NCBI RefSeq assembly: GCF_003334305.1
Contig: NZ_QOWS01000010.1
Strand: one strand, 5' to 3'
Origin: Escherichia coli
Lineage (GTDB): Bacteria > Pseudomonadota > Gammaproteobacteria > Enterobacterales > Enterobacteriaceae
Length of the DNA: 64,000 nucleotides
The translations under genes and the position numbers were made by a program. The notes under the pieces were generated by a model. That model searched no databases and was not told the origin of the DNA. It saw only the letters and a program-made list of their open reading frames with translations. This document shows positions 49,176-49,582 of the stretch, in pieces; position 1 is the stretch's first letter; each line of letters opens with the position of its first letter.

Positions 49176-49582
49176 GTATACCTTTATGTCCTCACTGTCA
49201 TATATTTCCATAATAATTAACCACCAAACATCCATTTAATGAATAAATACAGTGCCATAAAGGTCCAAGTAATAAGCACACATTTAGCCTGAAACATTAT
49301 CATCCATGTCACCAAATCGTTTATTTAGTGAGATAAAACTAGCATATTCGTAAGATAAAAAATGCACATAGCAATCAAGAAATGATATTATTACTTTTTT
49401 GATGTAAAACTATTTAGTTTTAAAATTCATTTTTTCAACATATAGAGCATTCATTTTATGAATGCAAAAAAACATACCTGACACACAAATTACTCTCCTC
49501 TGTAATATTTTCTCATTAACACTCTGTTTACCCAACATGCGCTCCGCACTACACTATGTGGGCATTTTTTTAAGGGGTGGTA

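Follow-up and report, generated by a model that had tools for sequence, protein, structure and literature searches.

The 407-bp gap that separates an accessory gene for a secreted Sel1-repeat protein from the core gene yajR in Escherichia coli is an ordinary AT-rich divergent promoter region, and the perfect palindrome that it contains is by itself within chance expectation. Sequence comparison indicates that this palindrome is absent from K-12 and moderately conserved in related Escherichia. It is tentatively predicted to be the dyad binding site of a dimeric transcription factor that acts on the promoter of the Sel1-repeat gene. At most, it would be an undescribed member of a familiar kind, the dyad operators.

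Layout and composition of the sel1-yajR gap

The gene order in the window (the whole stretch of E. coli DNA that was analysed, 64,000 nucleotides) is cyoABCDE on the plus strand, a 2.3-kb accessory segment and yajR, with the following features:

47203-49496, no strand: whole accessory segment, absent from K-12-type genomes; 42.6% GC versus 53% in the flanking genes
47347-48184, plus strand: itaR-itaT type II toxin-antitoxin operon (itaR 47347-47658, itaT 47642-48184)
48240-49175, minus strand: sel1-like gene, 311 aa, ATG at 49175 (RefSeq call)
49176-49582, no strand: sel1-yajR gap, divergent control region; 407 bp, 30.7% GC versus 51.5% for the window
49176-49496, no strand: part of the gap that has no K-12-type counterpart; 27.7% GC over 321 bp
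49497-49582, plus strand: native yajR promoter block, with -35-like TTTACC (49527-49532) and -10-like TACACT (49550-49555) 17 bp apart
49583-50947, plus strand: yajR, core MFS transporter gene, ATG at 49583

The layout supports the statement of the initial annotation that the promoters of both divergent genes must be located within this gap. The same annotation described the gap as far more AT-rich than any core intergenic region of the window. The 407-bp stretch with the lowest GC content of the window (27.8%) does fall in the gap, but the wording is too strong because the core ampG-cyoA gap has a GC content of 34.4% (407-bp minimum, 32.2%) and the core acrB-tomB gap one of 38.2%.

Two small open reading frames in the gap, one of 42 aa on the minus strand (49410-49538) and one of 44 aa on the plus strand (49462-49596), are not conserved in frame. 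They were rejected because the length of an A-run varies (7, 8 or 10 nt) and shifts the frame even among E. coli alleles. A mini-ORF, ATG-TTT-GGT-GGT-stop (MFGG; 49211-49229, minus strand, GGATGTTTGGTGGTTAA), is located in the sel1 leader region. It is kept in E. coli, Escherichia sp. EC7003 and the E4694 type, with TAA or TGA as the stop codon, and is lost in E. albertii; it is probably merely conserved DNA.

The accessory segment and its distribution

The accessory segment begins directly after the cyoE terminator (47178-47201) and is present in 1368 of 5426 complete E. coli genomes, including those of HS, B/BL21, W, O111 and O104:H4. Its ItaT toxin is a GNAT acetyltransferase (match to PDB 7byy at 4e-118). 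The ItaRT toxin-antitoxin system is known from E. coli HS, and ItaR-ItaT represses its own promoter (Wilcox et al. 2018, PMC6125619). Upstream of itaR, the best sigma-70-like promoter of the region, TTGACA-17-TAAATT (47242-47270; 10 of 12 matches), is flanked by 20-bp dyads at 47220-47239 and 47274-47293 (ATACGGCTAATAACCGTATG and CATACGGTTGATAGCCGTAT, 90% complementary), which are probably the ItaR-ItaT autoregulatory operators.

The sel1-like protein has a signal-peptide-like N-terminus (MLTKRILFSVMLIVSPSVVA) and is named tetratricopeptide/Sel1 repeat protein in RefSeq. Its gene is dispensable in some strains, since an IS3-family element interrupts it at the equivalent of ~48500 in GB089 (L037; flanks 100% identical to the window) and a frameshift affects it in strain WW2 (L006). 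A single 'O157:H7' genome, TR01 (L003 326-470), carries a deletion scar that joins 47238 to 49514 (47239-49513 lost). The scar fuses three pieces: the cyoE terminator, 36 bp from the left segment end, which contain one ATACGGCTAATAACCGTAT dyad, and the 69 bp that immediately precede yajR. TR01 has thus retained one itaR operator-like dyad together with the yajR promoter; the gap of typical O157:H7 genomes is of the K-12 type.

In the plasmid collection, the only records with the segment are of chromosome size and wrongly labelled as plasmids. Plasmids of Citrobacter, Serratia and Rahnella carry distant relatives of itaRT (65-72% identical), without the sel1 gene or the gap. The segment, which K-12 derivatives lack, is also held by the 4.83-Mb record NZ_CP026085.1; this record is labelled 'DH5alpha' and is probably mislabelled.

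The initial annotation allowed that the AT-rich tract and its palindrome might occur unchanged in K-12, as part of the native yajR promoter. They do not, as both are absent from K-12-type genomes. Only 49176-49496 of the gap counts as accessory DNA; ~49497-49582 is the native yajR block. The patchy presence and low GC content of the segment suit an accessory element, but the term "acquired DNA" of the initial annotation is too firm, as a homologous locus occupies this site across the genus. A search in and at the segment for an integrase, a transposase, a tRNA gene and flanking repeats found none. Of the attributes of a genomic island, the segment therefore has the patchy presence and the deviant composition but not the mobility genes, repeats or attachment site.

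Sel1 homologues are located between cyoE and yajR in E. albertii, Escherichia sp. EC7003, E4694, E4930, E4385 and metagenome organisms, and Salmonella enterica also has Sel1 genes at the cyoE-yajR site, together with other partner genes. The useful Sel1 lineages came from a protein database and contig look-ups; a scan of species genomes with the Sel1 protein returned one true relative only. The gap is homologous across the Escherichia lineages and always precedes the first Sel1 gene: 49176-49496 corresponds to the gap at this place in E. albertii and in the cryptic Escherichia clades, and identity to the window over 49176-49500 amounts to 83% in E. albertii and EC7003 and to 57% in the E4694 type. 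Judging from these comparisons, the segment resembles a long-standing presence/absence polymorphism whose site has stayed fixed. It is no simple recent insertion, and the K-12 type may have lost it.

A few E. coli carry an extra Sel1 paralogue of 499 aa at the cyoE-yajR site. In L026, L027, L032 and L034 (cryptic clades and a few E. coli), this paralogue precedes the 311-aa gene, apparently within one operon, and the gap before it and the E. coli gap are homologous. L033 combines the single-gene layout with an E4694-type gap. The 499-aa and 311-aa proteins are 33% identical. An origin of the E. coli sel1 gene as an in-frame fusion of the two paralogues was rejected: its product aligns end to end with the 311-aa protein at 87% identity, versus 33% with the 499-aa protein.

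The yajR promoter block and its two alleles

The K-12-type cyoE-yajR gap, found in 4051 of the 5426 complete E. coli genomes, is 148 bp long and very uniform. Its last ~110 bp align with ~49475-49582 of the window, and TTTACC-17-TACACT is common to the two. The block is shared by all Escherichia lineages examined, by the distant metagenome contig L024 and by Salmonella. Among Escherichia with Sel1 at this site, identity to the window over 49501-49582 is 86-99%, and runs of 21, 16 and 10 bp do not vary. From this conservation and the match to the promoter consensus, we infer that the yajR promoter lies within the final ~86 bp of the gap.

The upstream region of yajR thus exists in E. coli as two deep alleles, the K-12 type (L001 500-611) and one linked to the accessory segment, in 4051 and 1368 of the 5426 genomes, respectively. 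The yajR blocks of the two alleles are ~65% identical, versus 97-99% for the flanking genes, and the segment-linked allele is closer to Salmonella than the K-12 allele is. B-strain genomes (L004, NEBExpress) have a 9-bp tandem duplication (TCTGTAATA) at ~49497-49505, just before the yajR promoter block. A plus-strand hairpin at 49543-49569 (TCCGCAC-TACACTAT-GTGGG, then CATTTTTTT) overlaps the inferred -10 hexamer of yajR and is located just before the ribosome-binding site. It belongs to the segment-linked allele, the K-12 allele having neither the stem nor the T-run, and could be a coincidence or a leader element.

The palindrome and its conservation

49447-49465, no strand: perfect palindrome GCATTCAT-TTT-ATGAATGC, with 8-bp arms and a 3-bp loop, 19 bp in total

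The coordinates and sequence of this palindrome agree with those of the initial annotation, and its centre, 127 bp before the yajR ATG, agrees with the distance of about 120 bp given there. It is situated ~30-50 bp upstream of the native yajR promoter block, just outside the native part of the gap and roughly 106 bp before the inferred transcription start of yajR. Of dinucleotide-preserving shuffles of the gap, 8.3% contain a perfect palindrome whose arms are 8 bp or longer and whose loop does not exceed 5; the whole window contains 16 such palindromes versus 6.5 expected.

A 32-mer with the palindrome at its centre has matches in 1351 genomes, one in each and at this locus only (E-value up to 10), and is present only in genomes that have the accessory segment. 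This occurrence as one copy per genome, in segment carriers only, rules out a dispersed repeat (REP/BIME, MITE or insertion sequence end).

An intrinsic terminator was also rejected: only three of the eight stem pairs are G-C, neither strand has a U-run and the site is located between two divergent gene starts. On the plus strand, the 3' flank is A7; on the minus strand it reads TCTATATGTT, or TTTATATGTT in E. albertii and EC7003, and a simple terminator scan flags the minus strand only weakly. The predicted RNA folds have energies of -8.7 kcal/mol (plus strand; z-score -4.0) and -8.4 kcal/mol (minus strand; z-score -3.0), and a scan of 47000-50000 on both strands against Rfam 15 gave no match at E-values up to 1. 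The initial annotation had judged the palindrome to be a protein-binding site rather than a terminator. Its dismissal of a terminator holds, and for protein binding the comparative support is no more than moderate.

The alleles of the palindrome in the lineages compared are as follows:

E. coli, six alleles (94-100% identical): GCATTCAT-TTT-ATGAATGC, 8 of 8 pairs
EC7003 and E. albertii: GCATTCAT-TTA-ATGAATGC, a perfect 9-1-9 dyad
L035: right arm ATAAATGC, 7 of 8 pairs
L033: GTATTAAT-GGC-AAGAATAC, 6 of 8 pairs, the second pair changed from C:G to T:A on both sides
E4694 type: right arm AAGAATAT, 5 of 8 pairs

The perfect 8-bp arms, extended to 9-1-9 in E. albertii and EC7003, give the palindrome the dyad symmetry of a transcription factor operator. 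E. coli, EC7003 and E. albertii agree at all 16 arm positions, whereas the loop and the positions flanking the arms vary; the sole change within the palindrome itself is in the loop. Among the six E. coli alleles, EC7003 and E. albertii, 69% of the gap columns are invariant and 31% variable. The 19-column window of the palindrome has 18 invariant columns in this comparison, which places it in the top 17 of 324 windows. Across all lineages, it has 11 invariant columns of 19 and is unremarkable. The E4694-type gap is homologous and also drives Sel1 genes, and its version of the palindrome is about as diverged as the surroundings.

Counting of pairs gave 91% of cells paired, the same on both strands. 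The arm change in L035 produces a G-U wobble on the sel1 strand, and the one pair replaced on both sides, C:G by T:A, in the L033/E4694-type lineage counts as one evolutionary event. The observed covariation score was reached by 19 of 500 shuffles. Covariation of the palindrome pairs is thus suggestive and not decisive.

A comparison by eye with the consensus sequences for ArgR, Fur, CRP, CytR, MetR, OmpR, the marbox and sigma-54 (-24/-12) gave no convincing match. The ARG box consists of the half-sites TGAAT-N4-ATTCA, usually as two boxes 3 bp apart. An ArgR operator was rejected, as the half-sites of the palindrome are in the reverse arrangement (ATTCA-N5-TGAAT) and TGAAT-N4-ATTCA is found nowhere in the gap. 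A search of the accessory segment for a regulator gene showed that it encodes none. A search of one literature library found no paper treating the sel1-yajR gap, and none that ties yajR to Sel1, H-NS or an island or that contains the palindrome in a relevant context; it also yielded neither ChIP nor expression results from any segment-bearing strain.

Other elements near the palindrome

49405-49422, no strand: second perfect palindrome, TAAAACTA-TT-TAGTTTTA, with 8-bp arms
49432-49444, minus strand: invariant block TTTTCAACATATA, which adjoins the first palindrome and holds a -35-like TTGAAA
49230-49244, no strand: degenerate copy of the dyad core, ATCCAT-TTA-ATGAAT, with one mismatch to ATTCAT-N3-ATGAAT

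The palindrome at 49405-49422 was missing from the initial annotation. Two perfect palindromes in one gap occur in 0.44% of shuffles. The second one is broken by a T-to-C change in four of the six E. coli alleles and is absent in all other lineages; because it is not conserved, it is probably a product of chance.

The block TTTTCAACATATA and the first palindrome together form 34 bp with two variable positions among E. coli, EC7003 and E. albertii; non-palindromic blocks of the gap, for example 49288-49304, are equally conserved. The hexamer TTGAAA (49438-49433 on the sel1 strand) begins 8 bp downstream of the palindrome and, with AATAGT (49414-49409) at a distance of 18 bp, constitutes a weak predicted sel1 promoter (9 of 12 matches). 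In EC7003, the same TTGAAA is accompanied by another -10-like hexamer, and a search for promoter-like matches in E. albertii found none. Promoter-like matches are not more frequent in the region than in shuffled sequence (7 versus 5.7).

Measured from the sel1 ATG, the degenerate core copy at 49230-49244 is 55-69 bp upstream; its distance from the centre of the palindrome is 219 bp. It overlaps TGAATAAATA, which is among the few runs that are identical in all Escherichia lineages. In L024 (ATTCATGGAATGAAT, a perfect dyad) and Salmonella (ATTCAAGGAGTGAAT), the first Sel1 gene has a related sequence around its ribosome-binding site. A core copy with one mismatch appeared in 0.7% of shuffles of the rest of the gap, in a targeted test whose motif was defined post hoc; an unbiased test of the best repeated 16-mer in the gap gave P = 0.14. 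This possible second site is a lead only.

Proposed function and alternative explanations

In the proposed arrangement, the final ~86 bp of the gap would contain a separate promoter for yajR, and the remaining ~320 bp (28% GC) would belong with the Sel1 gene. A putative dimeric factor bound to the palindrome would then act on the sel1 promoter rather than on that of yajR: the palindrome is 8 bp upstream of the conserved -35-like TTGAAA on the sel1 strand, and the degenerate core copy is situated near the sel1 start. If the TTGAAA promoter is real, the centre of the dyad would be near -54, a position that fits an activator, an anti-silencer or the distal site of a looping repressor. Given the H-NS-type composition of the surrounding DNA, the site could serve a repressor or an anti-silencer. 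A more specific version, which we regard as improbable, takes ATTCAT-N3-ATGAAT to be the dyad of an uncharacterised chromosomal regulator that occupies two predicted operators (49230-49244 and 49449-49463, 219 bp or ~21 helical turns apart) and forms a loop that switches the Sel1 gene; the element at the ribosome-binding site in Salmonella and L024 would then be ancestral.

A binding site is not the only possible explanation of the palindrome. It may have arisen by chance in AT-rich DNA, its conservation reflecting short evolutionary distances or the overlapping -35-like block, with regulation exerted by general nucleoid proteins such as H-NS. The frequency of such palindromes in shuffled gaps and the ~6.5 expected per 64-kb window are compatible with this, as are the evident lack of conservation of the neighbouring palindrome, the equal conservation of non-palindromic blocks, the degradation in E4694-type lineages, the mismatch in L035 and the non-significant result of the unbiased repeat test. 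However, the 16 of 16 arm positions that remain invariant in three lineages beside a variable loop and flanks, the pair that changed on both sides and the one-mismatch core copy near the sel1 start speak against chance, and we consider it rather unlikely. The palindrome could also act as an RNA hairpin, either in a long sel1 leader on the minus strand or in an upstream transcript in the yajR sense, and affect mRNA stability or attenuation. The fold energies and their z-scores, the T-rich and terminator-like tail on the sel1 strand and the G-U wobble in L035 point in this direction, and the variants of 49230-49244 are also wobble-compatible on the sel1 strand. On the other hand, a sel1 leader hairpin would need a minus-strand promoter upstream of 49465 that overlaps the yajR promoter, where the scan predicted none; the stem is short and AU-rich, its tail is not a true U-run, Rfam has no counterpart and paired cells are equally frequent on both strands. 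Such a hairpin is therefore improbable as well.

Finally, the palindrome might be a structural or recombination feature of a mobile island, such as an element end, an attachment site or a REP/MITE-type repeat. Its location ~10-50 bp from the point at which K-12-type homology resumes and a GC content of the segment below that of its flanks would suit such a feature. But the palindrome has one copy per genome, in segment carriers only, and no matching repeat is found at the left end (47203), which has only the itaR operator-like ATACGG...CCGTAT dyads. The segment is without integrase, transposase or tRNA gene and occupies the same site across the genus, and the TR01 scar joins 47238 to 49514, not at the palindrome. 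A mobile-element origin is thus very improbable, and the binding site for a dimeric factor is tentatively retained as the reading of the palindrome.

Likeness to known systems

AT-rich promoter regions of accessory genes can be silenced by H-NS, a process called xenogeneic silencing. The sel1-yajR gap resembles such regions in its AT content (321 bp at 27.7% GC in a window of 51.5%, or ~320 bp at 28% in a 51% GC genome), in its location before a strain-variable gene and in its long A and T runs. It differs from them in that the nucleation motif is not enriched, the segment has long occupied this locus in the genus rather than being a recent acquisition, and core gaps reach 34% GC. The H-NS nucleation motif TCGWTWAATT has 22 matches in the window versus 15 expected, and the gap contains a one-mismatch match only. 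The only perfect match to the high-affinity H-NS motif in the 64 kb (TCGATAAATT, 47751-47760) is inside itaT. H-NS silencing of the gap, which the initial annotation had suggested, is plausible from composition alone.

Like the operators of dimeric helix-turn-helix proteins, the palindrome is an 8-3-8 dyad (9-1-9 in relatives) within a divergent promoter region, situated just before a -35-like hexamer and with a possible second site 219 bp away. Its core, ATTCA-N5-TGAAT, also fits the generic shape of the 15-bp T-N11-A boxes of LysR-type regulators. Unlike typical dyad operators, it has neither an adjacent regulator gene nor a match to a known motif, and it is conserved in only part of the genus. 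The window contains another dyad, a 24-bp perfect palindrome (TACATACATTTGTGAATGTATGTA, 8247-8270) upstream of an acrB-sized ORF, which we take to be the AcrR operator between acrR and acrA and hence a functional dyad.

The palindrome shares with the itaRT and tacAT operators its nature as palindromic DNA, in the case of itaRT within the same accessory segment. However, GCATTCAT is unrelated in sequence to the ATACGGCTAATAACCGTAT-type repeats of the itaRT control region (47203-47346) and is located 2.2 kb from them. A stem-loop flagged on the minus strand by a simple scan recalls intrinsic terminators, but the palindrome differs from these by its three G-C pairs of eight, its folding energy of ~-8.5 kcal/mol, its TCTATATGTT tail and the lack of an upstream gene that ends there.

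Biological implications

The palindrome matters little beyond local annotation. If it is a true operator, it would offer an entry point for studying how this secreted and so far unstudied Sel1-repeat protein, encoded in a quarter of E. coli strains, is regulated. A more useful by-product of the analysis is the existence of two alleles upstream of yajR, the K-12 type in 75% and the segment-linked type in 25% of genomes. With promoter blocks that are only ~65% identical, what is learned about yajR regulation in K-12 may not transfer to strains that carry the segment.
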